A stretch of DNA of 63,399 nt, counting the filler. It is 11 parts of 11 records of this genome, joined end to end, with 100 filler letters (N's around TTAATTAATTAA, not from the genome) between each part and the next. Parts side by side here need not be neighbours in the genome. Positions count along the whole stretch, not along the records: positions 36,236 to 48,782 come from SRR20825010_4920; 10 more parts are not named here. One strand, 5' to 3'. Numbering within the stretch: position 1 is the first letter of the stretch; each line of letters starts with the position of its first letter. A program made the translations under genes and the position numbers. This document shows, one piece after another, positions 12,635 through 59,433 of this stretch. Below the pieces are notes generated by a model that worked only from the letters and a program-made list of their open reading frames with translations, was not told the DNA's origin and did no database searches.

Positions 12635-12734
12635 NNNNNNNNNNNNNNNNNNNNNNNNNNNNNNNNNNNNNNNNNNNNTTAATTAATTAANNNNNNNNNN
12701 NNNNNNNNNNNNNNNNNNNNNNNNNNNNNNNNNN
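12635..12734. other. Artificial contig linker
   Basis: N44-TTAATTAATTAA-N44. Confidence 0.99.
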
Positions 12735-12735
12735 T

Positions 12736-14085
12736 GACGCGATCTGTGCCACCGGGCGTTCGGATTATCCGAACCAGATCAATAACGTGCTGGGCTTCCC
12801 GTACATCTTCCGCGGGGCACTTGATGTTCAGGCATCAACGATTAACGAAGAAATGAAAATTGCCGCTGCCCATGCGGTGGCGTCGCTGGCGCGAGAAGAC
12901 GTGCCTGATGAAGTAGCTGCGGCCTATTCCGGGCGTCGTTTGCAATATGGCCCGGAATATATCATTCCGGCCCCGTTTGATCCGCGTTTGATTATTGCCA
13001 TTCCCAAGGCAGTTGCGCAGGCGGCAATGGACAGCGGTGTTGCCCGTCGCCCGATCATTGATATGGCGGAATATGAAAACCAGCTGCGCGGTCGACTTGA
13101 TCCAACTGCGGCCCACCTGCAGCTGATTTCTGATTATGTGCGTGCACATCCGAAACGAATTGCCTTTGCCGAGGGCGAAGAAGAAACCGTTATTCGTGCA
13201 GCTGTTGCCTATCGCAATTCGGGCTATGGCACGCCGATCCTGATTGGCCGTGAAGATCGCATTCATGAAAGTGCCAAAAATCTTGGTATTGAAAGCCTTG
13301 AAGGTGTCGAGATCAGCAATGCGGCATTGTCCAAGAACAACACGGAATATGCTGAATTCATGTATGAACGTCTGCAGCGTAAAGGCTATCTGTGGCGCGA
13401 TTGTCAGCGCATGGTGAACCAGAAGCGTAACGTTTTTGCCTCCGTCATGGTGGCAAAGGGGCATGCGGACGGCATGATCACGGGCCTGACCCGAAACTTC
13501 AACCGCAGCTTTACCGATATTGCCAGCGTGATTGATGCCAAGGCGGGCGAAATCCCGATGGGGCTGTCGATTGCGATTGCCAAGGGGCGGACGGTGTTTA
13601 TTGCCGATACCCGGGTGCATAACCTTCCAAATGCGGAACAGCTTGCCGAGATTGCCATTCAGGCCGCGGAAAAAGCCCGTCAGCTTGGCCATGAGCCGCG
13701 CGTGGCACTTGTGTCACATTCGACCTTTGGCAATCCTTACAGCGAAGATACCGACCGTATCCGCGAGGCTGTTGGTATCCTGGAGCGTAGGGACGTTGAT
13801 TTCGAGTTTGATGGTGACATGGCTGTGGACGTCGCCCTCGATACCGAACTTCTGAAGCTTTATCCGTTCTGCCGTCTGTCTGGCCCGGCCAATGTTCTGG
13901 TCATGCCGGCCCTGCATGCGGCAACCACGGCGTCCAAGCTTCTTGATAAGCTTGGTGGTGGTACGGTGGTTGGTCCGGTGATGATTGGTCTGGAAAAACC
14001 GGCCCAGATCGCACAGATGGGGGCGACGGTGAACGATCTTGTGAACCTTGCAGCCCTTGCTGCGCATGAGGCTGAGCACGGCTAA
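12736..14085 (+). CDS. maeB: NADP-dependent malic enzyme with phosphotransacetylase-like domain (5'-partial)
   Basis: ATGRSDYPNQINNVLGFPYIFRGALDV followed by a PTA-like domain (RIAFAEGEE, FIADT, ANVLVMP). Confidence 0.95.
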   Translation, partial: DAICATGRSDYPNQINNVLGFPYIFRGALDVQASTINEEMKIAAAHAVASLAREDVPDEVAAAYSGRRLQYGPEYIIPAPFDPRLIIAIPKAVAQAAMDSGVARRPIIDMAEYENQLRGRLDPTAAHLQLISDYVRAHPKRIAFAEGEEETVIRAAVAYRNSGYGTPILIGREDRIHESAKNLGIESLEGVEISNAALSKNNTEYAEFMYERLQRKGYLWRDCQRMVNQKRNVFASVMVAKGHADGMITGLTRNFNRSFTDIASVIDAKAGEIPMGLSIAIAKGRTVFIADTRVHNLPNAEQLAEIAIQAAEKARQLGHEPRVALVSHSTFGNPYSEDTDRIREAVGILERRDVDFEFDGDMAVDVALDTELLKLYPFCRLSGPANVLVMPALHAATTASKLLDKLGGGTVVGPVMIGLEKPAQIAQMGATVNDLVNLAALAAHEAEHG

Positions 14086-19760: not shown

Positions 19761-19860
19761 NNNNNNNNNNNNNNNNNNNNNNNNNNNNNNNNNNNNNNNN
19801 NNNNTTAATTAATTAANNNNNNNNNNNNNNNNNNNNNNNNNNNNNNNNNNNNNNNNNNNN
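19761..19860. other. Artificial contig linker
   Basis: N44-TTAATTAATTAA-N44. Confidence 0.99.
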
Positions 19861-25361: not shown

Positions 25362-25461
25362 NNNNNNNNNNNNNNNNNNNNNNNNNNNNNNNNNNNNNNN
25401 NNNNNTTAATTAATTAANNNNNNNNNNNNNNNNNNNNNNNNNNNNNNNNNNNNNNNNNNNN
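25362..25461. other. Artificial contig linker
   Basis: N44-TTAATTAATTAA-N44. Confidence 0.99.
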
Positions 25462-31491: not shown

Positions 31492-32499
31492 ATGCCCAAT
31501 TCCAGACGTATCAGAGGACGCGCGCCCAGCGGCGACTATTGGCCCGGCTTTGTCGATGCCATGTCGAGCCTGCTGCTTGTCCTGATTTTTCTGCTGACGC
31601 TTTTCATGCTGACGCAATTCGTTCTCTCGCAACTCGTCTCCAACAAGGACGATGCGCTGCAATCGCTCCGCAGCCAGATCGCCGAACTGGTCAGCCAGCT
31701 TGCCATGTCGAAGCAGGAAAACACTGACCTGCAAACAACCATTGCAAGCCTCCAGATCGATCTCGCCGATGCGCTTTCACAAAAAGAAAAGCTCGCTGCC
31801 GCCGCAGGTGACGGCGACAAGATGGCTCTACTCAATAGCGAATTGGACAAGCAGAAGCAGATTTCCAACGAGGCTCTCTCGCAAGTCGAATTGCTGAACC
31901 AGCAAATCAGCGCCTTGCGCCGACAGCTGGCAACACTGGAAGCTGCTCTTGATGCCTCCGAGCAGCGCGACCGCGAAAGTCAGGCCCAGATTGCCAATCT
32001 CGGCAAAAGACTCAACGCCGCCCTTGCCCAGAAGGTGCAGGAACTGGCGCGCTATCGCTCCGAGTTTTTCGGACGCTTGCGTGAAATTCTCGGCAACCGG
32101 CCCGACATCGAAATTGTCGGCGACCGCTTTGTCATCCAGTCCGAAATCCTGTTCGACAGCGGCTCGGCAGACCTCAATCCCTCAGGCATCAGCCAGTTGC
32201 GCAAGATCACGGATGCCGTGCGCGAGATTGCGGCCCAGATACCCGAAGATCTCAACTGGGTCATCCGTATTGACGGCCACACGGACGCAAATCCGATCAA
32301 TACCGCACAGTTCCCGTCCAACTGGTATCTCTCCAGCGCACGCGCCATCGCGGTTGTGAATTTCATGGTTGAGGAAGGCGTCGCGCCCAATCATCTGGTA
32401 GCCGCAGGCTTCGGCGAATTCCAGCCGCTTGCCAAAGGCTCAAGCGCCGACGCCTTGAAACGCAACCGCCGCATCGAATTCAAATTGACCGAGAGATAG
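31492..32499 (+). CDS. MotB/OmpA-like peptidoglycan-binding protein with long coiled coil
   Basis: DYWPGFVDAM TM with Asp, coiled coil, then IDGHTD...NWYLSSARA...NRRIEFKL. Confidence 0.88.
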   Translation: MPNSRRIRGRAPSGDYWPGFVDAMSSLLLVLIFLLTLFMLTQFVLSQLVSNKDDALQSLRSQIAELVSQLAMSKQENTDLQTTIASLQIDLADALSQKEKLAAAAGDGDKMALLNSELDKQKQISNEALSQVELLNQQISALRRQLATLEAALDASEQRDRESQAQIANLGKRLNAALAQKVQELARYRSEFFGRLREILGNRPDIEIVGDRFVIQSEILFDSGSADLNPSGISQLRKITDAVREIAAQIPEDLNWVIRIDGHTDANPINTAQFPSNWYLSSARAIAVVNFMVEEGVAPNHLVAAGFGEFQPLAKGSSADALKRNRRIEFKLTER

Positions 32500-32544: not shown

Positions 32545-32644
32545 NNNNNNNNNNNNNNNNNNNNNNNNNNNNNNNNNNNNNNNNNNNNTTAATTAATTAA
32601 NNNNNNNNNNNNNNNNNNNNNNNNNNNNNNNNNNNNNNNNNNNN
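32545..32644. other. Artificial contig linker
   Basis: N44-TTAATTAATTAA-N44. Confidence 0.99.
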
Positions 32645-36135: not shown

Positions 36136-36235
36136 NNNNNNNNNNNNNNNNNNNNNNNNNNNNNNNNNNNNNNNNNNNNTTAATTAATTAANNNNNNNNN
36201 NNNNNNNNNNNNNNNNNNNNNNNNNNNNNNNNNNN
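36136..36235. other. Artificial contig linker
   Basis: N44-TTAATTAATTAA-N44. Confidence 0.99.
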
Positions 36236-36236
36236 C

Positions 36237-37064
36237 GACCATCGCTGCACCTTCTGCATCATTCCATTCGGGCGAGGAAATTCTCGTAGCGTCCCAGCAG
36301 GTGAGATCGTGCACCAGATCCGTGTGCTGGTGGAGAACGGCTATCGCGAAGTTGTCCTGACCGGCGTCGATATCACTTCTTACGGCTCAGACCTACCCGG
36401 CCACCCGAGCCTCGGAAATCTGGCAACCCGCATCCTGAAACTGGTACCCGAGCTGGACCGCCTGCGCATCTCGTCAATCGACTCGATTGAGGCCGATGAT
36501 GCATTGATGCGTCTCATCGCCGAAGAAGAGCGTCTTATGCCGCACCTGCATCTGTCGTTGCAATCGGGTGACAATATGATTCTGAAACGCATGAAACGCC
36601 GCCATGCACGCGAAGACTCAATTCGGTTCTGCGAAGACGTACGCCGTCTGCGACCGGACATTGCCTTTGGTGCCGATTTCATCGCCGGCTTCCCTACCGA
36701 AACCGAAGAGATGTTCGAAAATACATTACGGCTTGCAGACGAATGTGGCCTCACCTGGCTGCATGTCTTTCCCTTCAGCCCGCGCCCCGGCACACCAGCA
36801 GCGCGCATGCCACAGCTTGACCGTAGCCTTATCAAATCCCGCGCTGAACGTCTGCGCACCAAGGGTCAAATGCGCCTTAGCGCCCATCTCGATGCAGGAT
36901 TAGGACGGACAGTGCCCGTGCTGATGGAAACAGAAATACTCGGACGCACGAATCAGTTCACACCGGTGCGCCTTAGCGCGGCAGGGCTCAATGCCGGAGA
37001 CATTCTGCCGGTCCATCTGGCAGCCCATGACGGACAAAGCTTTGAAGGTCAGCTAGCAGTATGA
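36237..37064 (+). CDS. mtaB: tRNA methylthiotransferase MtaB (5'-partial)
   Basis: DHRCTFCIIPFGRGNSRS radical-SAM motif, LHLSLQSG, HVFPFSPRPGTPAA; upstream of ftsY. Confidence 0.9.
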   Translation, partial: DHRCTFCIIPFGRGNSRSVPAGEIVHQIRVLVENGYREVVLTGVDITSYGSDLPGHPSLGNLATRILKLVPELDRLRISSIDSIEADDALMRLIAEEERLMPHLHLSLQSGDNMILKRMKRRHAREDSIRFCEDVRRLRPDIAFGADFIAGFPTETEEMFENTLRLADECGLTWLHVFPFSPRPGTPAARMPQLDRSLIKSRAERLRTKGQMRLSAHLDAGLGRTVPVLMETEILGRTNQFTPVRLSAAGLNAGDILPVHLAAHDGQSFEGQLAV

Positions 37065-38050
37065 GTGAGACAGATACAGGCACACCGGAAGAACAAAAGA
37101 AGCGCTCTCTGTTCCAGCGGATGAAAGAAGGTCTGTCGCGTTCGACACGCACGATTTCCGATGGCATCACCGGCATTTTCACCAAAAAAAAGCTCGACCG
37201 TGCCACGCTTGATGATCTGGAAGATCTTTTGATAAGCGCCGACCTCGGCCTTGAAGCCTCCGCTGAGATTGTTGCGGCCGTTGGCAAAGGCCGCCATGAC
37301 AAAGAAGTCACGGCTGAAGAAATCCGCGAGATCGTGGCCGACGAAATCGAGAAGGTATTGGCGCCTATTGCGCTCCCCTTCAAAATCGATGAAGCCCGCA
37401 AGCCCTTCACGGTCTTAATGGTTGGTGTCAACGGAGCAGGCAAGACAACCACTGCAGCCAAAATTGCAGCACGGGCAAAAGCCGACGGAAAGTCTGTCAT
37501 GCTTGCCGCCGGCGACACATTTCGCGCCGCAGCCGTCGAACAGCTCAAGGTCTGGGGCGAGAGGCTCAACGTACCTGTCGTTTCCACAAAAATCGGAGGA
37601 GACGCCGCAGGCCTTGCCTATGAGGCATTGGCGCGGGCACGCAGCGAACAAACAGATCTTCTACTCATCGACACGGCAGGTCGATTGCAGAACAAGACCG
37701 ACCTTATGTCGGAGCTTGAGAAAATCCTCCGGGTAATCCGCAAACTCGACCCCGACGCACCACACGCAACTTTGCTGGTGCTTGATGCAACCACCGGCCA
37801 GAACGCGATCAATCAGGTTGATATTTTCGGCAAGACAGCAGGCGTCACCGGCCTCGTCATGACAAAACTCGATGGTACGGCGCGCGGCGGCATTCTAGTG
37901 GCAATTGCAAAGCGCTTTGCTCTGCCAGTCCATCTTATCGGTATCGGCGAACAGATTGATGATCTCCAGCCCTTCGACGCCAAGACATTCGGTCGTGCGA
38001 TCACTGGCGTTGCTGGCACCGCAGGCGAAATCAAGAACGGAACAAAATGA
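37061..38050 (+). CDS. ftsY: Signal recognition particle receptor FtsY
   Basis: GVNGAGKTTT, DTFRAAA, DTAGR, TKLDGTARGG. Confidence 0.97.
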   Translation: MSETDTGTPEEQKKRSLFQRMKEGLSRSTRTISDGITGIFTKKKLDRATLDDLEDLLISADLGLEASAEIVAAVGKGRHDKEVTAEEIREIVADEIEKVLAPIALPFKIDEARKPFTVLMVGVNGAGKTTTAAKIAARAKADGKSVMLAAGDTFRAAAVEQLKVWGERLNVPVVSTKIGGDAAGLAYEALARARSEQTDLLLIDTAGRLQNKTDLMSELEKILRVIRKLDPDAPHATLLVLDATTGQNAINQVDIFGKTAGVTGLVMTKLDGTARGGILVAIAKRFALPVHLIGIGEQIDDLQPFDAKTFGRAITGVAGTAGEIKNGTK

Positions 38051-38670
38051 GCGAGCAAACAAAAAACGGAAATGAGCCACTACTTCGTATGGGGCTGGAA
38101 ATCGGACCGCTAATTGTTTTCTTTCTGGCCAACTCGCAGGCAAACCGGATTTTCGGAAACGACCCATCGCAGAACATCTTTTATGCGACGGGTATCTTCA
38201 TGGTGGCCATCACACTCTCGCTGGTCGTCTCATATATGCGATTTCGCAAAATACCCACTATGCCGCTAGTCACAGGTGTCTTCGTGCTTGTCTTTGGCAC
38301 GCTCACACTGGTTTTGCATGACGAGCTTTTCATCAAGATCAAACCGACGCTCGTAAATTTGCTCTTCTCAAGCGCTTTGCTCGTTGCGGCCTATTTAGGC
38401 AAGCCGCTAATGAAGGTGCTTTTCGACAGCGCCTTCGATCTGACCGAAGAAGGCTGGATGATCCTCACAAAGCGCTGGGGGTTCTTTTTTCTCTTCCTCG
38501 CCATCATAAACGAAGTGCTATGGCGCAATTTCTCGACAGATTTCTGGCTTCAGTTCAAGATCTTCGGGATCATGCCAATCACCATCATTTTCGCGATGGC
38601 GCAGGTCAGCGTACTAACCCGCTACGCCACCCAAAAGCCGGACAGCTCGGATTCCGATAACGCCGCCTGA
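38047..38670 (+). CDS. yciB: Inner membrane protein YciB/IspZ
   Basis: LEIGPLIVFF, FIKIKPT, FKIFG. Confidence 0.9.
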   Translation: MSEQTKNGNEPLLRMGLEIGPLIVFFLANSQANRIFGNDPSQNIFYATGIFMVAITLSLVVSYMRFRKIPTMPLVTGVFVLVFGTLTLVLHDELFIKIKPTLVNLLFSSALLVAAYLGKPLMKVLFDSAFDLTEEGWMILTKRWGFFFLFLAIINEVLWRNFSTDFWLQFKIFGIMPITIIFAMAQVSVLTRYATQKPDSSDSDNAA

Positions 38671-38687
38671 CCAGATCACCCGTCCCG

Positions 38688-40343
38688 TCAGTCAAGAATA
38701 TTGCGATCTTTTGTTTCCGGCAGGAAGGCAATTCCGACCACGAAACAAACTGCCGCAATAATGATCGGATACCAAAGCCCATCATACATACTGCCCGTTG
38801 CCGCAATTATCGCAAAGGCAACCGGCGGCATGAATCCGCCGAACCAACCATTGCCTATGTGATAAGGCAATGACAGTGATGAATAGCGGATACGGGTCGG
38901 AAACAACTCGACCAGCATCGCCGCGATTGGCCCATAGGTCATTGCACCGAAAATCACCAACACACCGATCAACAAAACAATCATGGGTTTGTTGATCTCG
39001 TCATCAGCAGCCGAAGCGGGATAACCGGCATCTTTGAGGGCCACACCAAGCGCCTGATTGAACACGACCATCTTTTGCGCTGCATCTACATCGGTGGCGT
39101 CGTAGGAAACAATCACGGTGCCACCCACATGTATCTCAGCGACACCACCGGCGACCGCACGATTATCGTAAGGCACACCACTTTTGACGAGTGCTGTCTT
39201 GGCCACATCGCAGGGTGTGGTGAAAGCAGATGTACCCACAGGATTAAATTGCAATGAACACGTATCAGGATCGGCCACAACAGTGACTGGCGCTTTTGCC
39301 TGCGCCAATTCCAGAGCCGGATTGGCGTAATGCGTAATGGCTTGAAAAATCGGCATATAGGTAATAGCGGCCAGCAAGCAGCCCGCCATGATGATCGGCT
39401 TACGCCCGATCTTATCCGACAGAATGCCGAAAATAACAAAGAAGGGTGTTCCGATCACCAATCCTCCGGCTACCAAAATAGTGGCGGTCAGGCCATCCAC
39501 CTTCAATACTTGAGTCAGAAAAATCAGAGCATAGAACTGACCTGTATACCAAACCACGGCCTCGCCCATCGCCAAACCGAACAGGGCGATCAGAACGATC
39601 TTGAGGTTAGACCAGCGGGCGAAGCTATCGCGTAGCGGCATCGAAGAACCTTTGCCCTCTTCCTTCATTTTCTTGAAGGCAGGGGACTCATCCAACCGCA
39701 TACGAATCCAAACAGAAATAGCCAGCAAGACAACAGAGAGCAGGAAGGGGACGCGCCATCCCCATGCTTCAAATGTTTCCGGTTCCATAACCGCGCGACA
39801 CGCCATGATAACGATCAGAGACAGAAACAAACCTGCTGTCGCCGTCATCTGAATCCATGAAGTGTACGCCCCACGTTTACCGGCTGGTGCATGTTCGGCC
39901 ACATAGGTCGCCGCCCCGCCATATTCGCCGCCAATGGCCAGACCCTGCGCCATGCGCAAAATAACAAGCGCGATCGGGGCAAGTATTCCGACCGAGGAAT
40001 AGGTGGGCAGCAAACCGACCAGAAAAGTCGAGAAGCCCATGATCAGGATGGTGACCAGAAAAGTGTATTTTCGACCAACCATATCCCCCAACCGCCCGAA
40101 GACCAGCGCTCCGAAGGGACGCACTGCAAATCCAGCCGCAAAGACGAGAAGCGCAAAAATGAAAGCCGTCGTGTCATTAAGACCGGAGAAAAACTGTTTC
40201 GAGAAAATCGCCGCCAATGCCCCATAGACGAAAAAATCGTACCACTCGAACATCGTGCCCAGAGAAGAGGCAAATACAACACGGCGTTCGTCGGGCGTCA
40301 TGCGCCCCTTGTCGCCACTTTCCACTACTGACGTTTTTATCAC
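38688..40343 (-). CDS. MFS transporter, metabolite:H+ symporter family
   Basis: SSLGTMFEWYDFF, GRLGDMVGRK, GGEYGGA, ELFPTRIRY. Confidence 0.92.
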   Translation of the reverse strand: MIKTSVVESGDKGRMTPDERRVVFASSLGTMFEWYDFFVYGALAAIFSKQFFSGLNDTTAFIFALLVFAAGFAVRPFGALVFGRLGDMVGRKYTFLVTILIMGFSTFLVGLLPTYSSVGILAPIALVILRMAQGLAIGGEYGGAATYVAEHAPAGKRGAYTSWIQMTATAGLFLSLIVIMACRAVMEPETFEAWGWRVPFLLSVVLLAISVWIRMRLDESPAFKKMKEEGKGSSMPLRDSFARWSNLKIVLIALFGLAMGEAVVWYTGQFYALIFLTQVLKVDGLTATILVAGGLVIGTPFFVIFGILSDKIGRKPIIMAGCLLAAITYMPIFQAITHYANPALELAQAKAPVTVVADPDTCSLQFNPVGTSAFTTPCDVAKTALVKSGVPYDNRAVAGGVAEIHVGGTVIVSYDATDVDAAQKMVVFNQALGVALKDAGYPASAADDEINKPMIVLLIGVLVIFGAMTYGPIAAMLVELFPTRIRYSSLSLPYHIGNGWFGGFMPPVAFAIIAATGSMYDGLWYPIIIAAVCFVVGIAFLPETKDRNILD

Positions 40344-40438
40344 CCTGCCCCCTCAGATTTTTGTTTGCAGGCAGAATGCAGCGAACGGACAAACTGGTCT
40401 AGACCCGATCGTCCATTAAAAATGGATGGTTCATGGAT

Positions 40439-41044
40439 CTATAGCGGCCTTTGGACCCAACGATCTCCCAACTCACCAATGGGATTTGCAAATGGCGTGA
40501 TAATGACCTGACCCTGAACGGAGCGAAACTGTTCCAATGCCCAAATGACGCTGGGGAAAGCGAGCTCCTGCCACGGAATTTCCTCCCACTCAAACAAGGC
40601 AACCTCCAGACTTTCAACGCCGGGCGAAAAATCCGGGGTACGCATTTCAGCCCGATACATGATCTGCACCTGAGCAATGCGCGGGATAGAATAGATAGCA
40701 AGTAGATCACGTATCTCTATTTCGACATTCGCCTCTTCACGCGCCTCTCGTTGTGCGCCTGCTTCCACCGTTTCACCATGCTCCATGAAGCCTGCAGGCA
40801 ACCTCCAGAACCCCTTGCGCGGTTCGATTGCACGTCGGCATAGAAGAAACTTTCCTTCAAACGTTACAACCGACCCGACAACAATTTTTGGATTGTCATA
40901 GCTGATGAGCCCGCAGTGATCACAAATATCACGCGCAATGCTGTCACCGGCCGGAACCCTTTGTGAGAAAGACAAATCCTGCTTGGATCCTGGCTCACGA
41001 TGTTTCATTGGTCCCGGTTTTGACATTTTCCATCTCCGCGTCAA
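40439..41044 (-). CDS. NUDIX hydrolase (start uncertain)
   Basis: Nudix box GFMEHGETVEAGAQREAREEAN. Confidence 0.9.
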   Translation of the reverse strand: MTRRWKMSKPGPMKHREPGSKQDLSFSQRVPAGDSIARDICDHCGLISYDNPKIVVGSVVTFEGKFLLCRRAIEPRKGFWRLPAGFMEHGETVEAGAQREAREEANVEIEIRDLLAIYSIPRIAQVQIMYRAEMRTPDFSPGVESLEVALFEWEEIPWQELAFPSVIWALEQFRSVQGQVIITPFANPIGELGDRWVQRPL

Positions 41045-41347
41045 CTAGTGGACAGCTTTTCCCGTCTGTCATTAGAAAGTTTATCCCACATTCTCAAGAC
41101 CAAGGTCTATTTCCATACATATTTATATCAATTTGAAAAAGCTCATCGTTTTACTTATCAATCGCCTTTCATCAGTTTACGGAATTCATCTGCATTTCAT
41201 GGTTACGAAAATTTCACTTTGACTGCATTATGCGCAAATTGCACAAAGCCCAATATATTCCGCCTCCGGAAGGCGTGCTGCGACACTTTCCCTATCTACT
41301 GGAGCTTGCAGAGTCTGAAACAAGAGTGCATATGAAGGCGATCAATA

Positions 41348-41394
41348 TGCTGACAAAATGTCGACCCCCCATTTCAAAATTGAATTTGTCAGCA
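41348..41394. promoter_or_regulatory. Perfect 10-bp inverted repeat upstream of marR, candidate operator or hairpin
   Basis: TGCTGACAAA-N27-TTTGTCAGCA in an AT-rich divergent intergenic region. Confidence 0.4.
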
Positions 41395-41461
41395 CGTCCT
41401 TTCAGTGGAATGCGGTCCAGCTATCTGTGACCCAACCATTTTTCATCCGGAGGTTTTTACC

Positions 41462-42004
41462 ATGGCAAGCAAGAAGTCGGCGGGAAGCTACGATCTCGAA
41501 ACATCCCTGAGCCACTTGCTACGTCGCGCCCAGCAATTTGCGTATGACCAGTTTGTTCAGCAAATGGGTGACAGCACAATCACACCGCGCCAGTTCATTG
41601 TTCTCTTTGCCGTAAATGAGGAAGAAGGTCTGAGCCAGACCGACCTTGTCAACCGCACAGGTATTGACCGGTCGACACTGGCCGACATGATCAGCCGTAT
41701 GATAAAAAACGGCCTGCTTGCCCGCAAGCGCACCGCCGAAGATGCCCGTGCCAATGCAGTACGTTTGACCGCCGCAGGTCGCCGCGCACTCAACAGCAGC
41801 CTGCCCCGCGCCATCACGGCCGAGAAGTCCTTGCTGGACCTGCTCCCCAAAACAGTGCAGGCCGACCTGGTGAAGGGTCTGACCCAGCTCGCCACAGCAA
41901 TTGTGTCGTCCAAGGTTGAAGAAAAGCCTGCACGTGCCCCGCGCCGCGCCGCGCCTGCCGCACGCAAAAAAGCAGCCCCCAAAAAGGCTGCCAAGCGCAA
42001 GTAA
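41462..42004 (+). CDS. MarR family regulator with a basic Lys/Ala/Arg C-terminal tail
   Basis: LSHLLRRAQQ, ITPRQF, SQTDL...IDRSTL, DARANAVRLT; GGAGG RBS. Confidence 0.9.
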   Translation: MASKKSAGSYDLETSLSHLLRRAQQFAYDQFVQQMGDSTITPRQFIVLFAVNEEEGLSQTDLVNRTGIDRSTLADMISRMIKNGLLARKRTAEDARANAVRLTAAGRRALNSSLPRAITAEKSLLDLLPKTVQADLVKGLTQLATAIVSSKVEEKPARAPRRAAPAARKKAAPKKAAKRK

Positions 42005-42047
42005 GCTTGAACACCAGAATAAGCGGCGTCCGCACCTTGCGGAAAAG

Positions 42048-42611
42048 TTAGGGAACGGACGCCGCCTTCAAGGCAGGTAAAATTTCAGTGTCGATCATGT
42101 CCGACGTCAACGGGCCAACATGTTTGAAGGCGATGCGCCCCTTGCCGTCGATGACATAAGTCTCCGGCACCCCGTAAACACCCCAATCAATAGCAACCCG
42201 TCCCTTGGCATCAACACCAATGCGATCAAACGGATTGCCCAGTTCACTCAAAAATCCTCGCGCGCTCTCTTCTGTGTCCTTGTAGTTCAGGCCATATAGA
42301 AGTGCGTCGGTGCGTTTCTTGAGTTCGCTCAGCACGGCATGTTCCTGACGACAAGGCACACACCACGACGCCCAGACATTTACAACGGACGCTTTTCCCT
42401 GACCAAAATCACTACTGGATAACCCCGGAGTATTCAGGCCCACAACAGGCGGTAATTCAAATTGCGGCACTTCCCGCCCTATGAGCGGCGAGGGCACACG
42501 CGATGGGTCACCCCCGAAAACGGCGACAAGAAAAAGAACGGCAACAACCAGAAAAACAAAAACCGGAATCAAAGCGCTCCAGCGAACCTGTCTTTTTACG
42601 CCATTTGTCAT
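42048..42611 (-). CDS. ccmG: Thiol:disulfide oxidoreductase CcmG/DsbE
   Basis: WASWCVPCRQEH, GVYGVPETY. Confidence 0.95.
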   Translation of the reverse strand: MTNGVKRQVRWSALIPVFVFLVVAVLFLVAVFGGDPSRVPSPLIGREVPQFELPPVVGLNTPGLSSSDFGQGKASVVNVWASWCVPCRQEHAVLSELKKRTDALLYGLNYKDTEESARGFLSELGNPFDRIGVDAKGRVAIDWGVYGVPETYVIDGKGRIAFKHVGPLTSDMIDTEILPALKAASVP

Positions 42612-42823
42612 GCGCCTAGGTCCGTATCTTTCGCCGCATCCTTCATCGGCGCGCGCTTCCGCGATCCGTCCGAGTTGAGTTTTTCCAAAACGGCCAGCAA
42701 TGTTTTTTGCCGCCTGAGATCACGCCAAGTCGCAAGGATCAAAACCAGCATGACCAAACCGACGATGGCGTAGGAAGACCATACAAACCCGGCATATCCG
42801 CCCATGGCAAAAAAATCAGCCAT
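42608..42823 (-). CDS. ccmD: Heme exporter protein CcmD (71 aa)
   Basis: MADFFAMGGYAGFVWSSY + TM + basic tail, between ccmC and ccmG. Confidence 0.9.
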   Translation of the reverse strand: MADFFAMGGYAGFVWSSYAIVGLVMLVLILATWRDLRRQKTLLAVLEKLNSDGSRKRAPMKDAAKDTDLGA

Positions 42824-42825
42824 CC

Positions 42826-43572
42826 CTATGCCTCCACCTGCGCCAACCGCAAGGCACGGATACGGCGACGCAGTATTTCGGCACGCATGCCCGCAAACAG
42901 CATCACAACAAAGAAAACCGTGAAACCCAGCGCCATCAGCGCCAAAGGTATAAGCATTGATGGAGCGATCTGCGGACCATCCATCCGGAACACACTTGCA
43001 GGCTGATGCAGCGTATTCCACCAGACAACAGAGTAATGCACGATCGGCACATTGATAGACCCCACTAGCGCAAGTACAGCAGCAGCACGCCCCGCCCGCG
43101 TCGGTTCCTCTATTGTTTGCCAGAGCGCCATATAGCCCAAATAAAGAAAAAGTAGAATCAGCATGGAGGTGAGACGCGCATCCCATTCCCACCACGTACC
43201 CCACATAGGACGGCCCCAAAGCGATCCTGTGACAAGTGCCAGAAAACAAAACGCCGCACCAATGGGGGCCGCAGATTTGGCACAAACATCTGCAAGCGGG
43301 TGGCGGAATACCAACGCGACAAGCGATGCAACAGCCATCACCATATATCCCATCATGCCAAGCCAGGCCGAAGGCACATGCACATACATGATGCGCACTG
43401 TCTCGCCCTGCTGGTAATCAGGCGGAGAATTCAACAAACTGAACCACAACCCGCTGCCGATCAGCCCGATCGTCAGAAGAGCCAGCGGCCACATCAACCA
43501 GCCAGATAGCGCCATAAAACGGGCCGGATTGGCAAAGGCGTGAAATCTTTGTGTCAGTGTAAGCTTGGACAT
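42826..43572 (-). CDS. ccmC: Heme exporter protein CcmC
   Basis: YVHVP, WGRPMWGTWWEWDARLT, WWNTLHQ. Confidence 0.97.
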   Translation of the reverse strand: MSKLTLTQRFHAFANPARFMALSGWLMWPLALLTIGLIGSGLWFSLLNSPPDYQQGETVRIMYVHVPSAWLGMMGYMVMAVASLVALVFRHPLADVCAKSAAPIGAAFCFLALVTGSLWGRPMWGTWWEWDARLTSMLILLFLYLGYMALWQTIEEPTRAGRAAAVLALVGSINVPIVHYSVVWWNTLHQPASVFRMDGPQIAPSMLIPLALMALGFTVFFVVMLFAGMRAEILRRRIRALRLAQVEA

Positions 43573-43646
43573 TGTGCCATTTAGCTGTCTGTGAACCATT
43601 TGGGCAAGGCGCTGGCGTCAATTCGGGCCGCGCAATTTGCCGCGTA

Positions 43647-44321
43647 TCAGGATTTGAGATTGGCTCTGAGCGCCGCCGCCGAGGCCCAAGGACCAACCAC
43701 CAAAGAAACCAGCGTCACGGCCGCCAGGAGCAATAAAGCCTGCTCTGCTGCACCGGGCATTGCATCTGCTCCGCCACTAGCTGCAACACCAAAAATCAGC
43801 ACCGGTATATAGAATGGCATCACAAGCAGGGATGCCAGCAACCCACCTCGTCTGACGCTCACCGTAAGAGCCGCACCAATTGCCCCCAAAAGACTCAAGG
43901 CCGGTGTGCCGATCATCATGGCGGCCAAAAGCGGACGAAAAACCACAGGATCAAGATTAAGCAGCAATCCAAGAAGTGGGGCGACAATAACGAGCGGTAA
44001 ACCGGTTGTCAGCCAATGCGCAATCACCTTGGCGCAAACCGTCAACTCCAACGGCAAAGTACCCATAGTCAGAACATCTAGCGTCCCATCCTCGAAATCC
44101 GCTTGAAATAAACGGTCGAGTGTAAGAAGCGATGACAAAAGCAGCGCCACCCAGAGAAATCCGGGTGCAATCTGCCCCAGAAGCTGCAAATTTGGCCCTA
44201 CACCCAAAGGCAGGATGGCAACAGTAACAAGAAAGAAGAAGACAGCCATGCCGCCGCCACCGCCAACATGCACGGCCAGCGCAACATCCCGACGCAATAG
44301 CGCGACGAATGCACTCATCAT
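43647..44321 (-). CDS. ccmB: Heme exporter protein CcmB
   Basis: LDRLFQADFEDGTLD, KVIAHW, PFYIPVLIFG. Confidence 0.96.
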   Translation of the reverse strand: MMSAFVALLRRDVALAVHVGGGGGMAVFFFLVTVAILPLGVGPNLQLLGQIAPGFLWVALLLSSLLTLDRLFQADFEDGTLDVLTMGTLPLELTVCAKVIAHWLTTGLPLVIVAPLLGLLLNLDPVVFRPLLAAMMIGTPALSLLGAIGAALTVSVRRGGLLASLLVMPFYIPVLIFGVAASGGADAMPGAAEQALLLLAAVTLVSLVVGPWASAAALRANLKS

Positions 44322-44965
44322 GTCGGCACCTGCACTTGTGCGGCACCTATTCTAAGGCTGGTCACAGGCTCCAGACCAAGCTCCTGATGCGTAGCAGCAA
44401 TGATCATACCGCCATATGCCAAATGGCCCTGCATCGCACTCACAAGCCGGGAAAGACTTGCGGCATCAAGGGCCACACTGGGTTCATCCAGCAGCCAGAG
44501 CGCGCGTGGGGCAATAAGCAAACGCGCAAGACTGAGCCTGCGCCTTTGTCCGGCCGAAAGATAAGCCACCGGTAATTCGGCAAGATGGACCAGATCGAAC
44601 ACCTCAAAAGCATGCGCCACACTGTCAGGTGTCCCCCCTAGAAAATCCGACCAAAAGCGGGCGGTCTCCGCCACACTCATAGCCGCCTTCAAAGCATCCG
44701 CATGACCGACATAGTGGGTTTGCTCTGCAAGACTGAAATCCTCTTTCCCACCTTCGAGCACCAATTCGCCACCCGCCGGATCAAGCAACCCGCCAATCAA
44801 TCGCAATAAGCTCGATTTACCTGCTCCGTTTGCACCAGTCACAACCATGGCCGCGCCACCTGCCAAAACAAATGACAGATCACGAAACACCATTCGTCCG
44901 CCGCGCTGGCAGTCAAGATGTTCGGCCCGCAGGCTCAGACTATTTGGGTAGGTAGATGTGATCAC
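44318..44965 (-). CDS. ccmA: Heme ABC exporter ATPase CcmA (start uncertain)
   Basis: GANGAGKSSLLR, LSAGQRRR, WLLDEP. Confidence 0.93.
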   Translation of the reverse strand: MITSTYPNSLSLRAEHLDCQRGGRMVFRDLSFVLAGGAAMVVTGANGAGKSSLLRLIGGLLDPAGGELVLEGGKEDFSLAEQTHYVGHADALKAAMSVAETARFWSDFLGGTPDSVAHAFEVFDLVHLAELPVAYLSAGQRRRLSLARLLIAPRALWLLDEPSVALDAASLSRLVSAMQGHLAYGGMIIAATHQELGLEPVTSLRIGAAQVQVPT

Positions 44966-44975
44966 AAACAGACTT

Positions 44976-45803
44976 TCAGATTTCGTCAAAGCGTCCGCCG
45001 CGCCCTTTACCAGCGGCAAAGCGCGCGGCGCCTTTTACTGTCTCGCCAGTTGATAGCACACGGCGACCATGCTCGAACTCATTTGCCACGGCCTGATCAT
45101 AAGGCAAATCCCATTGCTGATAGGCCGACATACGATCCCCCTTGAGACAATTTTGAGGAAAACGGGCGATTTCAGCAGCCAACTTCTCCGCTTCCACCCG
45201 CCCCTGACCTTTGGAAACCACCCGATTGGCAAGCCCCATGCTCAAAGCCTCTGCCGCGTGAACAGCGCGACCCGTCAAGATCAGATCCATAGCACGCGCA
45301 TGTCCGATCAGACGCGGTAGCCTCACTGTACCGCCATCAATAAGTGGAACGCCCCAACGACGGCAGAATACGCCCATCACCGCGTCTTCTTCGACCACGC
45401 GCATATCGCACCACAGAGCAAGCTCCAATCCGCCAGCCACAGCAAAGCCTGAGATCGCGCCGATCACGGGCTTGGAAAGCACCATGCGCGACGGCCCCAT
45501 AGGGCCGTCTGTCGCCATACGATCAAATTCGAGTCCGATGCGCGGATTACGGATGAGATTGCTATGCTGCGCGTCCGCGCTATCTGTGCCGCCTGCTGCC
45601 ACCGCTTTGAGGTCAGCACCTGCACAGAACGTTCCGTGATCACCCGCAAAGACGGCCACCAGCGCGTTCTCATCCTGTTCGAAGGCAAGAAACGCATCAG
45701 CAAGTGCCGCTGCTGTCGATCTATCAACGGCATTGCGCACCTCCGGACGACTGAGGATCACTGTTGTGACGGGACCATTCCTCTCGATGCGCACCGTTTC
45801 CAC
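44976..45803 (-). CDS. Crotonase/enoyl-CoA hydratase family protein
   Basis: RNAVD, FCAGADLK, AVAGGLELALWCD; GTG start at 45803 with AGGGAG RBS. Confidence 0.92.
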   Translation of the reverse strand: METVRIERNGPVTTVILSRPEVRNAVDRSTAAALADAFLAFEQDENALVAVFAGDHGTFCAGADLKAVAAGGTDSADAQHSNLIRNPRIGLEFDRMATDGPMGPSRMVLSKPVIGAISGFAVAGGLELALWCDMRVVEEDAVMGVFCRRWGVPLIDGGTVRLPRLIGHARAMDLILTGRAVHAAEALSMGLANRVVSKGQGRVEAEKLAAEIARFPQNCLKGDRMSAYQQWDLPYDQAVANEFEHGRRVLSTGETVKGAARFAAGKGRGGRFDEI

Positions 45804-46058
45804 GCCTATCTCCCTTGTTACTTTTCGCTCTGGTTTCTGTGAGCAATTATCACTTGATATGAATAGGTCAAACCATAGCCTTCGTGTGGGAAAGACCTTA
45901 TAGTGCGGGCCGTCAAGCATACAGGCCCAATGGCACGGCATGCGGCGGCGATTTGCGATAACCGGCCTTGCGTATTTACTCCGCTCGGACGGCTCGCCAA
46001 AACGACCCCCTCACCCCCCGCCACATCTGCCAGGGCACGCATCATCGAGGAACATTCC

Positions 46059-48782
46059 ATGGCGAAGAAGGCCCCGGCTAAGGCCAAAACCAAAGCGAAA
46101 AAGGCAAGCGCAAAAGTTGCGAAGCCTGTAGCAAAGAAAGCAAAGGCAGCGACAAAAACCGTCGCCAAAAAAGTGAAGGCTGCTGCAAAGCCTGTCGCTA
46201 AGAAGGCAAAAGCAACTGCAAAGCCTGTAGCGAAAAAGGTCAAGGCGACAACAAAGCCCGTCGCCAAGAAGGCCAAAGTCGCCGCTAAGCCGGTTGCTAA
46301 AAAGGTGAAGTCGGCTGCAAAGCCCGTCGCTAAAAAGGCGAAGGCTGCTGCAAAGCCTGTAGCCAAGAAAGTTAAAACAGCAGCTAAAAAGGCCGCGCCA
46401 GCCAAAAAGCCGGCGGCGAAAAAAGTAGCTCCGAAAAAGGCAGCTGTGAAAAAGACCGCTACGGCAAAAAAAGCAGTCGCAAAGAAAGCCGCCCCTGCAA
46501 AAAAGATAGCTGCGAAGAAGGCGACACCCGCGAGGAAGCCTACGGCCAAACCCGCAGCCAAGAAAGCCGCTCCCAAAAAGGCAGCATCGAAAGCCCCCGG
46601 CAACAGCTTCGGTGCCAAACAGACACTGAAGGTCGGCAAGCGCAGCTACACGATCTACAGCATCAAAGCTGCAGAAAAAAACGGTCTGCCCGGCACAGCC
46701 CGTCTGCCTTTCTCGTTGAAGGTTCTGCTCGAAAATCTTCTGCGTTTTGAAGATGGCCGCACCGTCACTGCCGATGATATCAAGGCTGTGAAGGGCTGGC
46801 TCAAGTCGCGTAGCTCGACACGCGAAATCGCCTATCGCCCCGCCCGCGTTCTTATGCAGGACTTCACCGGCGTCCCCGCCGTGGTCGATCTTGCCGCTAT
46901 GCGCGACGCTGTGAAGACGCTCGGTGGCGATCCGACCAAGATCAATCCGCTGGTACCAGTCGATCTCGTCATCGATCACTCGGTCATGGTTGACAAATTC
47001 GGCACACAGACCGCGTTCCGCGAAAATACGGAAATTGAGTACAGCCGCAATCGCGAGCGCTATGAATTTCTGCGTTGGGGTTCCAAGGCCTTCAACAACT
47101 TCCGCGTTGTCCCGCCTGGAACAGGCATCTGCCATCAGGTGAACCTCGAATATCTCGCCCAGACTGTCTGGACAAAGACAGAAGGCAAGGAAGAGATCGC
47201 CTACCCCGACACCTGCGTCGGCACAGACAGCCACACCACCATGGTAAACGGCCTTGCCGTTCTGGGTTGGGGCGTGGGCGGTATCGAAGCCGAAGCTGCA
47301 ATGCTCGGCCAGCCGGTTTCCATGCTCATTCCCGAAGTCATCGGCTTCAAGCTCACGGGCAAACTTGCTGAGGGCGTGACCGCCACCGATATGGTGCTCA
47401 CAATCACCCAGATGCTCCGCAAACGCGGCGTTGTTGGCAAATTCGTCGAATATTTCGGCGGCGGCCTCGACAATCTCACGCTCGAAGATCGCGCCACTGT
47501 CGCCAACATGGCGCCTGAATACGGCGCGACTTGCGGCTTCTTCCCGATCGACAATGAAACCCTCAAATTCCTCAGAGCTACAGGTCGCTCCGAAGAACGC
47601 GTCGCTCTTGTCGAAGCTTATGCAAAAGCACAGGGCATGTTCCGCGAAAAGAACACGCCCGATCCGGTCTTCACCGACACGCTGGAACTCGACCTCTCCT
47701 CGGTTGTGCCCAGCCTTGCCGGTCCCAAGCGTCCACAGGATCGTGTTGCACTCACCGATGTCGCAGCAAGCTTTGCCGGTTCTTTAGCAGGTGAATTCGG
47801 CAAGCCCGGTCAGGCTGCTAACCGCGTTGCCGTCGAAGGCAAGGATTTCGATCTCGGTCATGGCGACGTCGTCATTGCAGCAATCACGTCCTGCACCAAC
47901 ACGTCGAACCCCAGCGTGCTTGTTGCCGCCGGTCTTGTGGCGCGTAACGCCCGCAAGCTTGGTCTGCAGGTAAAGCCTTGGGTCAAGACTTCGCTTGCTC
48001 CCGGCTCACAGGTCGTCACTGACTACCTGACAAAGTCCGGCTTGCAGTCAGACCTCGACGCACTGGGCTTTGACCTAGTCGGTTATGGTTGCACGACCTG
48101 CATCGGCAATTCCGGCCCTCTGCCGATCGAAATCAGCCAGACGATCAACAAGAACGACCTCGTCGCTTCGGCTGTCCTCTCGGGCAATCGTAACTTCGAA
48201 GGCCGTGTCTCACCGGATGTGAAGGCAAACTACCTCGCCTCACCCCCGCTGGTCGTCGCCTACGCGCTTGCCGGTTCCACTCAGATCGACATCACCAAGG
48301 ATCCGATCGGAACAGGCAGCAACGGGCAGCCTGTCTACCTGAAAGATATCTGGCCTTCGACACAGGAAATCGCCGACACGGTGCGCTCCTGCGTTACACC
48401 GGAAATGTTCCGCAACCGCTATGCCAACGTGTTCGATGGCGATGCGAACTGGCAGAGCATCAAGGTTACGGGTGGCCTGACCTACGACTGGGACAATGAA
48501 TCGACCTATGTCCAGAACCCGCCCTACTTCGAAGGTCTGAAGCAGGAACTGACGCCGCTTGAAAATGTGAACAAGGCACGGATCCTCGGCCTCTTTGCCG
48601 ACTCGATTACGACCGACCACATTTCACCTGCCGGCAACATCAAGGTCCAGAGCCCTGCTGGCTCTTACCTGATTTCCAAACAGGTCGGTGCACAGGACTT
48701 CAACGGCTATGGCGCACGCCGTGGCAACCATCAAGTCATGATGCGCGGCACCTTTGCCAATATCCGCATCAAGAACCAGATG
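46059..48782 (+). CDS. acnA: Aconitate hydratase AcnA with histone-H1-like N-terminal extension (3'-partial)
   Basis: [47 protein letters not shown] 46059 after GAGG. Confidence 0.95.
46119..46382 (+). repeat. Eight tandem 33-nt coding repeats (11 aa, consensus AKPVAKK[A/V]KAA)
   Basis: [88 protein letters not shown]. Confidence 0.95.
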
Positions 48783-48882
48783 NNNNNNNNNNNNNNNNNN
48801 NNNNNNNNNNNNNNNNNNNNNNNNNNTTAATTAATTAANNNNNNNNNNNNNNNNNNNNNNNNNNNNNNNNNNNNNNNNNNNN
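48783..48882. other. Artificial contig linker
   Basis: N44-TTAATTAATTAA-N44. Confidence 0.99.
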
Positions 48883-49283
48883 CGCTGGAACACATTGTGC
48901 CAGACCGTGAAGAAGGTTTCGGGGATCGCTGCCGCCTCGGTCATGGTCAGCGCCGCGGGAGCCAACAGGGCATTGGTCTCGTCAACGGTGCAGTACTCGG
49001 CATATCCGCCGCCCGCCACCAGGGCGCAGACATGATCGCCCGGCTTGAACCCCTGAACGGAGGCGCCGACCGCTTCCACCTCCCCGGCAATCTCCAGCCC
49101 CGGAATATCGGATGCGCCCGGCGGCGGCGGGTAGGCTCCCTGCCGCTGCAGGCAATCAGGGCGGTTCACCCCCGCGGCCGCCACCTTGACCAGCAGTTCC
49201 GTCGCGCCAGGGACGGGCTTGTCGCGTGTTGTCGGGGTAAGGACTTCGGGACCGCCGGGCTCCCGGATTTCGATTGCACGCAT
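48883..49283 (-). CDS. NAD(P)H-quinone oxidoreductase, PIG3 family (3'-partial)
   Basis: PGGPEVL, AAGVNRPD..QRQGAYPPPPGASDIPGLE, PETFFTVW. Confidence 0.92.
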
Positions 49284-49436
49284 CAGATCGTTCTCCTGCT
49301 CACACTTTTCCACAACTTAGGCACGGGCTAGGATAACGGCAATGCCGGCCAACGGCCTGACCCAGGACAATACACGGGAAATCCCGGACCCCGGCACATG
49401 CGATGCACGAGAAGACCGAAACGCGAGGACAAGACC

Positions 49437-54912: not shown

Positions 54913-55944
54913 TCAGCGTTCGGTCAGCTTGAGCTCGATGCGGCGGTTGGTGGCGCGGTCGGCGTCGGTGTCGCCTTCGGCTATCGGCTGGAACTCGCCG
55001 AAGCCTGCTGCCACCAGGCGGTTGGCAGGCACACCCTCGCCGATCAGGTACTTGACCACAGATGTCGCGCGGGCGCTGGAAAGCTCCCAGTTGTCGGCGT
55101 AGCGCCCTGTCCCGGACAGCGGCACGTTGTCCGTGTGGCCATCGACGCGCAGCACCCAGTTGATCTCCTCGGGGATCTCGCGGGCAAGCTCGATGATCGC
55201 GGCTGCGAGCTTGGCCATCTGCTCCTTGCCCGCGGGATTGAGCTCGTTGCCGCCTGACGGGAACAGCACTTCCGACTGGAACACGAACCGGTCGCCCACC
55301 ACCCGCACGTCCTCGCGGCTCGCCAGGATCTCGCGCAGGCGGCCAAAGAAATCGGACCGGTAGCGATTGAGCTCCTGCACCCGCTGGGCCAGTGCGACAT
55401 TCAACCGGCGGCCAAGATCGGCGATCTTCGCCTGGGTTTCCCGGTCCTTGCTTTCGGAAACCTCGAGCGCATCTTCAAGCGCGCCGAGCTGGGTCCTGAG
55501 TGCTGCGATCTGCTGATTGAGCAGATCAACCTGGTTCAGCGCCCGCTGCGAGACCTTCTTCTCGGCATCAAGCGTTTCCGACAGAGTGCCGATCCTGGCT
55601 TCCGCAGCCGCACTTGCACCCGAACCGCTGGCCAGCAGTTCCTGCAGCCGCGACCGGTCGGATTCCGATTCCGACAGCGACGCCTGCAGATTTGCCAGCG
55701 TATCCTCGAGGTCCTGCTTGCCTGAGCGCTCGAGCGCCAAGAGCTGGGTCAGCTCATTGATCTGGCTGTTGAGCCGGTTGAGCACTTGGTCCCGGCCCGA
55801 TATCTCGCGCGACAGGAAAAACTGCGCCAGAACGAACACCGTGAGCAGGAACATGATCGCCAGCAGCAATGTCGACAGCGCATCGACAAATCCCGGCCAG
55901 TAATCGACCGTCCGCTCCCGCCGCCGGTTTCGTGCCAGCGCCAT
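54913..55944 (-). CDS. MotB/OmpA-like peptidoglycan-binding protein (homolog of 31492..32499)
   Basis: DYWPGFVDAL TM, coiled coil, VDGHTD...NWELSSARA...NRRIELKLTER. Confidence 0.9.
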   Translation of the reverse strand: MALARNRRRERTVDYWPGFVDALSTLLLAIMFLLTVFVLAQFFLSREISGRDQVLNRLNSQINELTQLLALERSGKQDLEDTLANLQASLSESESDRSRLQELLASGSGASAAAEARIGTLSETLDAEKKVSQRALNQVDLLNQQIAALRTQLGALEDALEVSESKDRETQAKIADLGRRLNVALAQRVQELNRYRSDFFGRLREILASREDVRVVGDRFVFQSEVLFPSGGNELNPAGKEQMAKLAAAIIELAREIPEEINWVLRVDGHTDNVPLSGTGRYADNWELSSARATSVVKYLIGEGVPANRLVAAGFGEFQPIAEGDTDADRATNRRIELKLTER

Positions 55945-56065: not shown

Positions 56066-56165
56066 NNNNNNNNNNNNNNNNNNNNNNNNNNNNNNNNNNN
56101 NNNNNNNNNTTAATTAATTAANNNNNNNNNNNNNNNNNNNNNNNNNNNNNNNNNNNNNNNNNNNN
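56066..56165. other. Artificial contig linker
   Basis: N44-TTAATTAATTAA-N44. Confidence 0.99.
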
Positions 56166-59333: not shown

Positions 59334-59433
59334 NNNNNNNNNNNNNNNNNNNNNNNNNNNNNNNNNNNNNNNNNNNNTTAATTAATTAANNNNNNNNNNN
59401 NNNNNNNNNNNNNNNNNNNNNNNNNNNNNNNNN
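59334..59433. other. Artificial contig linker
   Basis: N44-TTAATTAATTAA-N44. Confidence 0.99.

Follow-up and report, generated by a model that had tools for sequence, protein, structure and literature searches.

A lysine-rich, predicted disordered N-terminal tail on the AcnA-type aconitase of Parvibaculaceae

The acnA reading frame

The stretch of DNA analysed in this work (the window) is a 63-kb pseudo-molecule, in which 11 draft contigs are joined by 10 artificial junctions. One of these contigs ends within acnA, an aconitase gene of a Parvibaculum-like bacterium whose reading frame opens with a long lysine-rich extension, hereafter the tail. When translated, 46059-48782 yields 908 residues and no stop (Table 1). 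The 181 residues of the tail consist of K65 A64 P17 V17 T11 S3 R1 I1 G1 M1 and include neither D nor E, in agreement with the codon count, the 65 lysines, the single arginine and the lack of acidic residues given in a first-pass annotation of this DNA. The AcnA core begins with NSFGAKQ at residue 182 (nt 46602), and it is from this residue that the AcnA models match, so the normal AcnA start proposed to follow the tail is indeed there.

Both NCBIfam models of AcnA were matched well above their cut-offs by the truncated gene: NF006757 with 1213.5 bits (cut-off 686; match from residue 182, model position 5) and TIGR01341 with 1144.6 (cut-off 945; also from residue 182). The window protein scored below the cut-offs of the AcnD, mitochondrial and LeuC-type aconitase models. 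Pfam Aconitase was matched with E = 3.9e-173, and the closest solved structures to the core are human and rabbit IRP1 (2b3x, 3sn2) with E of about 1e-250 (5.3e-251 for 2b3x). The SCTN and GCTTC motifs, previously noted as intact, were found as described. Their cysteines, which we take to be the ligands of the [4Fe-4S] cluster of aconitases, are all three invariant in an alignment of 55 sequences.

The end coordinate 48782 given in the first-pass annotation is where the contig stops: acnA runs into the junction at 48783 and its own end is not reached. Relative to P0003, a homologue with a 99 % identical core, the window protein lacks 161 C-terminal residues corresponding to the swivel domain. 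Aconitase_C (PF00694), the swivel domain with the substrate-binding Ser-Arg motif, is a precomputed Pfam match in P0003, and in the window the contig ends before it. By each feature visible up to the contig end the enzyme part would be assigned to the AcnA family, and as far as the contig reaches it looks like an intact, catalytically competent AcnA/IRP-type aconitase.

Table 1. Features of the acnA locus and artificial contig junctions in the window
Feature	Position	Strand	Details
Conserved upstream block GAAAGAC.TTATAGT...CAAGCATA.AGG	45890-45925	+	135-170 nt before acnA start
Shine-Dalgarno GAGGA	46047-46051	+	7 nt upstream of ATG 46059; GAGGA/GAGGAG in 8/8 aligned loci
N-terminal polycationic tail	46059-46601	+	181 codons, net charge +66, K/A/P/V-rich, predicted disordered
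Tandem repeat inside tail	46118-46371	+	Tandem Repeats Finder: 33-nt unit x7.7, 66-nt super-unit x3.8
AcnA core (aconitate hydratase A / IRP1-type)	46602-48782	+	residues 182-908; NCBIfam, Pfam; 3' end cut by contig end
SCTN motif, first Fe-S cysteine	47889-47900	+	residues 611-614; Cys = C639 of P0003
GCTTC motif, second and third Fe-S cysteines	48087-48101	+	residues 677-681; Cys = C705, C708 of P0003
Artificial contig junction ending acnA	48783-48882	.	N44-TTAATTAATTAA-N44
Contig junctions	3250-3349, 8796-8895, 12635-12734, 19761-19860, 25362-25461		N44-TTAATTAATTAA-N44
Contig junctions, continued	32545-32644, 36136-36235, 48783-48882, 56066-56165, 59334-59433		N44-TTAATTAATTAA-N44

Start of translation

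ATG 46059, proposed as the start together with its ribosome binding site, is the sole start codon of the frame with a Shine-Dalgarno site. Both the ATG and the site are kept in all eight aligned DNA loci, where the first codons ATG GCG AAG AAG GCC CC are conserved as well. As claimed before, the frame runs into AcnA with neither a stop nor an internal ATG; the first in-frame ATG is found at residue 266. The frame also has GTG codons at residues 39, 83 and 130 and, at residue 190, a CTG, none of which is preceded by a Shine-Dalgarno site. Between residues 131 and 219 there is neither ATG, GTG nor TTG, so that a protein whose AcnA N-terminus is intact must contain 51 or more residues of the tail. 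Translation most probably starts at ATG 46059 and yields one polypeptide made of the tail and AcnA.

Four public proteins belonging to the same clade as the long-tailed aconitases (described below) look short or tail-less, and inspection of the DNA has shown all four to be start-call truncations. P0064 is an exact match to locus L031, its annotated start being a CTG (locus position 4010) within an uninterrupted K-rich open reading frame (ORF). P0055 (exact) and P0056 (99.9 %) match L026 and have annotated GTG starts inside the tail ORF (locus position 4169), while P0019, an exact match to L003, also has a GTG start inside the tail ORF (locus position 2975). In the DNA of L031, L026 and L003 the K-rich ORF begins further upstream, at an ATG that has a Shine-Dalgarno site, and continues unbroken. 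In some public records the tail has been removed by start calling guided by homology.

The view that the tail is not in the protein at all, owing either to a downstream start or to the region being another gene, is hardly credible to us. It could draw on these four annotations, which begin after or inside the tail, and on the existence of the internal GTG and CTG codons. However, the CTG and GTG codons annotated as starts lie within an unbroken ORF that has its own upstream ATG and Shine-Dalgarno site, the internal codons of the window have no such site, and residues 131 to 219 offer no ATG, GTG or TTG in between. Two reverse frames are also open across the tail (minus-strand ORFs 45818-46639 and 46011-47234). 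We rejected them as genes, since they are open merely because AAR and GCN codons yield no stops in two reverse frames; conservation lies in the K-rich frame and its MAKKAPAK start, not in the reverse frames.

Distribution of the tail among related aconitases

Homologues were searched with residues 1-330 as the query, and the figures given here refer to the best 120 matches listed. A K-rich extension of at least 100 residues precedes the conserved AcnA start in 46 of them, with lengths of 109-347 residues, so the long basic N-termini that the first-pass annotation suggested looking for on AcnA orthologues do exist. Most of the long extensions start with MAKKAPAK or MAKKATAK. Tail-less relatives have 3-12 residues ahead of the conserved AcnA start. 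Precomputed PF07382 and aconitase domains occur together in 22 of the 120, and one homologue fragment is named "histone H1-like repetitive region-containing protein" by NCBI.

Genome contigs were scanned in addition, and the best 80 stretches gave 79 loci. Five of these lack the 5' part of acnA and one begins inside the gene, leaving 73 usable for the tail. An unbroken in-frame K-rich tail of about 175-220 codons is present in seven (L001, L003, L004, L017, L026, L031 and L037): five belong to metagenome-assembled genomes (MAGs) of Parvibaculum, L003 to an uncultured Rhodobiaceae MAG and L037 to a cultured isolate, Mf 1.05b.01 (Parvibaculaceae bacterium). According to NCBI taxonomy, both Parvibaculum and this isolate are in Parvibaculaceae. 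No tail was found in the 60-odd loci from Phenylobacterium, Methyloceanibacter, Sphingomicrobium, Elioraea, Micavibrio and others. In L042, a basic extension of 31 residues lies upstream of position 4001. Among the relatives examined the tail thus appears to be conserved across Parvibaculaceae and restricted to them.

The same junction of tail and acnA in many independent assemblies excludes a misassembly, which had been raised as a concern for this fusion. The K-rich tail is also far from a chance stretch. When 11 or more K and no more than 2 D/E in 40 residues were required, the tail was the sole match in six frames of the window, and in 708 kb of the related loci only the seven acnA 5' ends and three spurious matches of 41-44 residues were found.

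A FastTree tree was built from the 727-residue core of 114 homologues and the window, six fragments with cores shorter than 700 residues being left out. All 44 long tails (at least 100 residues) present in this tree fall into one clade of 57 rows with SH-like (Shimodaira-Hasegawa-like) support of 95. Among the 13 shorter rows of the clade are the four start-call artefacts described above and several others whose first residue is a Val within K-rich sequence. In sister groups, AcnA has shorter basic extensions of 13-99 residues, which are possibly either forerunners of the long tail or small tails of independent origin. A group of 34-residue extensions (MATQRVSKTAVKK...) comprises proteins P0080-P0113, and other short basic extensions are found in P0058, P0065, P0098 and L042.

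Conserved composition and variable sequence

The 44 long tails are uniform in composition: the fraction of K is 0.37 +/- 0.04 (range 0.28-0.46), that of A 0.32 and that of P 0.10. Acidic residues are absent in 22 tails, while 17 tails have one and five have two; net charge ranges from +38 to +130. Autocorrelation of K positions shows a lag of 5 in 38 of the 44. The lag of 11 residues characteristic of the window is seen in only two. A 66-nt unit, coding for 22 residues, describes the window repeat better than the 33-nt one. No clear signal of a core charge compensating for the tail was found, net core charge being -7.5 +/- 7.5 with long tails and -13.7 +/- 15.8 without them.

The window and P0003 illustrate how the tails diverge. 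For cores that are 99 % identical, the tails, of 181 and 208 residues respectively, differ by two in-frame indels (10 and 17 residues) and about 15 substitutions. From near-identical cores combined with diverged tails of constant composition we conclude that selection maintains the composition, the charge and the open frame of the tail, and probably its length, but no particular sequence. The tail sequence turns over fast via in-frame gain and loss of repeats, with its composition held.

Fusion with an adjacent H1-like gene was considered as the origin of the tail and rejected, as no K-rich ORF was found near acnA in the approximately 10-kb neighbourhoods of tail-less loci. The lack of an H1-like neighbour, together with the tandem repeats and the short extensions of sister groups, favours a stepwise in situ repeat expansion of a short basic N-terminus over gene fusion.

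Predicted structure and resemblance to known lysine-rich proteins

AlphaFold2 was run on P0003 with a 55-row alignment. Residues 1-205 have a predicted local distance difference test (pLDDT) score of 29-38 and no secondary structure; most of the enzyme is at 80-95. On this prediction, we regard the tail as an intrinsically disordered polycation.

The first-pass annotation spoke of a histone-H1-like domain. The composition justifies the comparison, the word "domain" less so: Pfam Linker_histone, the globular winged helix of H1, had no match when the tail was searched up to E <= 10, and the tail alone matched Pfam HC2 (PF07382) with 18.8 bits (E = 0.0018), the gathering cut-off being 40. For the whole window protein, there was no HC2 match at E <= 0.01. 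With disorder predicted besides, what the tail shares with linker histone H1 is a composition like that of the H1 C-terminal domain, and it differs in having no globular winged-helix domain.

Several bacterial proteins are more similar in kind. Chlamydia Hc2 is described as a DNA-binding protein built of lysine-rich pentamers that vary in number (PMC2848022). Pseudomonas AlgP, also reported to bind DNA, has a KPAA tail and localises to polyphosphate granules (PMC9239181). The disordered KPAA-repeat C-terminal region of P. aeruginosa PhaF was reported to bind RNA directly and activate translation, and P. putida PhaF is thought to bind DNA (PMC12818456). The aconitase tails share the Lys/Ala/Pro composition and predicted disorder with all three, and most Parvibaculaceae-type tails also have the pentamer periodicity; as in Hc2, the lysine-rich repeats are short and their number varies between close relatives. 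The tail differs from all three in being N-terminal and joined to a large metabolic enzyme. The window tail is under the cut-off of the Hc2 family and not a formal member. It has 2 KPAA and 7 KPVA motifs (9 KP[AV]A in total), compared with 22 KPAA in P. aeruginosa PhaF (PMC12818456). The AlgP and PhaF N-terminal domains are absent, and there is no agreed threshold of motif number for membership.

Lysine-rich low-complexity regions on folded proteins with another job have precedents. Streptomyces DdbA is reported to combine an H1-like N-terminus with a DksA-like domain (PMC3643593), and Cobetia PhaC2, a polyhydroxyalkanoate (PHA) synthase, has a basic C-terminal extension with weak HC2 matches, described in silico (PMC8686332). 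In the present case, the partner is different, a TCA-cycle Fe-S enzyme.

Searching with the tail alone was of limited use. A phmmer search of the 181 residues against 1.84 billion representatives gave 53 matches at E <= 0.001, one of them an aconitase fragment. By Pfam content the remaining ones are assorted low-complexity or 11-mer-repeat proteins: apolipoprotein-like, ankyrin, Ig, and a trigger factor C-terminus with HC2 (P0174). A word-based search for the tail in longer proteins found six matches, namely three aconitases, a DksA zinc finger with HC2 (P0176) and two GH57 proteins with HC2. The composition correction of HMMER leaves tail searches uninformative on which other proteins carry such tails.

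Upstream region and gene context

The upstream block (Table 1) is near-identical in six Parvibaculum-type loci, those of the window, L001, L003, L004, L017 and L026, and may be a promoter or operator of acnA. A scan of the upstream region for the sigma-70 consensus and promoters gave no match, and Rfam found nothing on the contig. RNAalifold analysis of the six 5' regions did not support an RNA structure, as the covariation term was positive (unfavourable) and compensatory changes were seen in 2 of 27 pairs. Eight "terminators" predicted on the minus strand over the tail were rejected as T-runs arising from Lys codons.

Since the window is a chain of separate contigs, adjacency across junctions is meaningless and genes at contig edges, acnA included, are truncated. 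Only 36236-48782 is physically linked to acnA. Here acnA is divergent from an enoyl-CoA hydratase gene; further along are ccmA, ccmB, ccmC, ccmD and a redoxin gene, and beyond it genes for MarR, NUDIX, an MFS transporter, intracellular septation protein A (IspA-family), ftsY and a radical-SAM protein. Elsewhere in the window, the ORFs scanned comprise housekeeping genes (gltX, trkH, ppa, efp, glmS, an msbA-like gene, pmbA and ampG) and some with no NCBIfam match at E <= 1e-30. No RNase E gene was found among the window ORFs scanned.

On the other side of the junction that ends acnA lies an N-terminal fragment of a PIG3-family NAD(P)H quinone oxidoreductase (48883-49313, minus strand), cut by the same junction. 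An ORF at 12787-14085 (plus strand) resembles NADP-dependent malic enzyme solely over its phosphotransacetylase-like C-terminal half (model positions 323-761); it starts directly after a contig junction and is probably a truncated maeB. Two paralogues on different contigs (31492-32499, plus strand; 54913-55944, minus strand) match the PRK09039 "peptidoglycan-binding protein" NCBIfam models, with a MotB/OmpA-like C-terminus.

Possible role of the tail

Aconitase is a textbook moonlighting enzyme, an Fe-S dehydratase turned RNA-binding regulator. Known AcnA/IRP1 enzymes bind RNA through the opened cleft of the apo-enzyme, not through an appended disordered region. The window enzyme shares with E. 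coli AcnA, B. subtilis CitB, human IRP1 and Caulobacter CC3667 the core from residue 182 onwards and the Fe-S cysteine motifs, and differs in its tail, as none of these is reported to have a long polycationic N-terminal extension. An association with DNA is known for yeast mitochondrial Aco1, which is found in mtDNA nucleoids; that aconitase belongs to another, mitochondrial subfamily and has no such tail. In alphaproteobacteria, aconitase is in addition a fixed subunit of the RNA degradosome.

Caulobacter crescentus, which is of the same bacterial class as the source of the window enzyme, has AcnA (CC3667) as a principal degradosome component binding residues 675-725 of RNase E (PMC3045602), and this AcnA is reported to colocalise uniformly with RNase E in bacterial ribonucleoprotein bodies (BR-bodies; PMC9882336). 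Caulobacter AcnA is a stoichiometric member of both the degradosome and these bodies. The question of why it is aconitase that carries the tail thus points to RNA, and the tail is possibly linked to the aconitase-containing degradosome of alphaproteobacteria.

We give about an even chance to the tail being a nucleic-acid tether. A disordered tail with a charge of +66 would bind polyanions electrostatically, and its main targets would be nucleic acids. It would thereby concentrate aconitase in the nucleoid and the transcript-rich phase and strengthen an RNA-linked second job that AcnA may already hold in alphaproteobacteria. That the tail binds nucleic acid and so changes the location of the enzyme is what we infer from its likeness to AlgP, PhaF and Hc2. 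By the same analogy, tethering to nucleoid, RNA or polyphosphate and a role in redox-sensing chromatin, all put forward in the first-pass annotation, are plausible and are not separated here. We speculate that the main ligand is about as likely to be RNA as DNA and that the status of the Fe-S cluster may matter for the association.

Several points weigh against a nucleic-acid tether. Polycations bind polyphosphate and acidic lipids too. The neighbours of acnA are ordinary housekeeping genes that do not point to a role with the nucleoid or RNA. The HC2 score stays under the family cut-off, the tail-only searches returned mixed low-complexity proteins with no coherent partner set, and the look-alikes of the tail in the atlas, HC2-type clusters, reached 0.84, a score too low for them to count as more than leads. 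Two members of the long-tail clade that begin with MAKK..., P0039 and P0036, have just 41 and 50 tail residues, so a long tail is not indispensable. Finally, the window's own acnA is truncated by the contig end.

Among other targets, we consider storage granules (polyphosphate and/or PHA) an unlikely candidate. The K/P/A tail of AlgP is reported to be needed for association with polyphosphate granules and for their spacing (PMC9239181), and polyhydroxybutyrate (PHB) granules of Herbaspirillum seropedicae were found to hold an HC2-type H1-like protein, a separate AcnA and a CYTH-CHAD protein (PMC3783465). Fusing an HC2-type protein with AcnA would fit the logic that fused genes work together, and the basic extension of Cobetia PhaC2 synthases, predicted in silico, is in line with it (PMC8686332). 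However, the authors of the PHB-granule study deem non-specific sticking of apo-aconitase possible (PMC3783465), nothing links the Parvibaculaceae aconitase to granules, and none of the ppk, pha or phasin genes was found on the acnA contig or among the other window ORFs scanned. Binding of a polybasic or amphipathic 11-mer repeat to acidic phospholipids of the inner face of the cytoplasmic membrane, which would bring aconitase near the respiratory chain, is very improbable. Although the window repeat has a period of 11 residues and there are weak apolipoprotein-type 11-mer matches (Pfam Apolipoprotein with E = 0.2; several apolipoprotein-like phmmer matches), the Apolipoprotein score of 11.8 bits falls short of the cut-off of 90, AlphaFold predicts no helix and the tail has no hydrophobic or aromatic anchor residues. 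The period of 11 is shared by two tails as against 38 with period 5; being lineage-specific, it led us to reject the amphipathic 11-mer reading.

A tail with no specific partner, being a tolerated, largely neutral low-complexity expansion or a solubility bristle produced by replication slippage on a short basic N-terminus, seems to us slightly less probable than a granule tether. It would account for a composition conserved without sequence, for the tandem repeats and in-frame indels between near-identical genes, and for tail lengths of 41-347 residues; the 13-99-residue basic extensions of sister clades would be its possible precursors, and the absence of an adjacent H1-like gene in tail-less loci makes in situ expansion likelier than gene fusion. 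Yet a neutral repeat should decay, whereas the 44 tails, on cores down to about 70 % identity, keep 0.28-0.46 K, no more than two acidic residues, the MAKKA start and a frame that stays open for 109-330 codons. Nor is an abundant enzyme likely to bear a charge of +38 to +130 with no effect. Going beyond a tether, aconitase in Parvibaculaceae might serve as a major polycationic scaffold, either for the nucleoid or for RNase E ribonucleoprotein bodies, its tail co-condensing with RNA or DNA and its Fe-S state (holo/closed versus apo/open) tuning the association. We hold this bolder idea to be a long shot, less probable again than a neutral tail.

Significance of the tail

We found no report in print of an aconitase fused to an H1-like or lysine-rich tail, most subscription journals lying outside the literature covered. 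The suggestion that the fusion is undescribed therefore stands as far as the papers covered go, but the architecture is visible in databases, where the HC2 and aconitase domains are annotated together in the 22 homologues mentioned above and one record bears an H1-like name. The fusion is undescribed rather than unseen: what is unreported is the pairing of a known enzyme with a disordered polycation of a known type. Since CTG and GTG start calls trim such tails, extensions of this kind on housekeeping enzymes are probably under-counted.

Even if the tail were neutral, it would be a clean case in which composition is under selection and sequence is not. Should aconitase turn out to be a scaffold, it would couple RNA decay or chromosome compaction directly to iron, oxidative stress or the state of the TCA cycle. 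Bacteria would then have, in a single polypeptide, a counterpart to IRP1 regulation and to the yeast Aco1 found in mtDNA nucleoids. Tails of such kind were recently shown to bind DNA, RNA and polyphosphate, and the tail of the Parvibaculaceae aconitase, about 200 residues long with a charge of +38 to +130, offers a natural and genetically tractable handle on the proximity of aconitase and nucleic acids.

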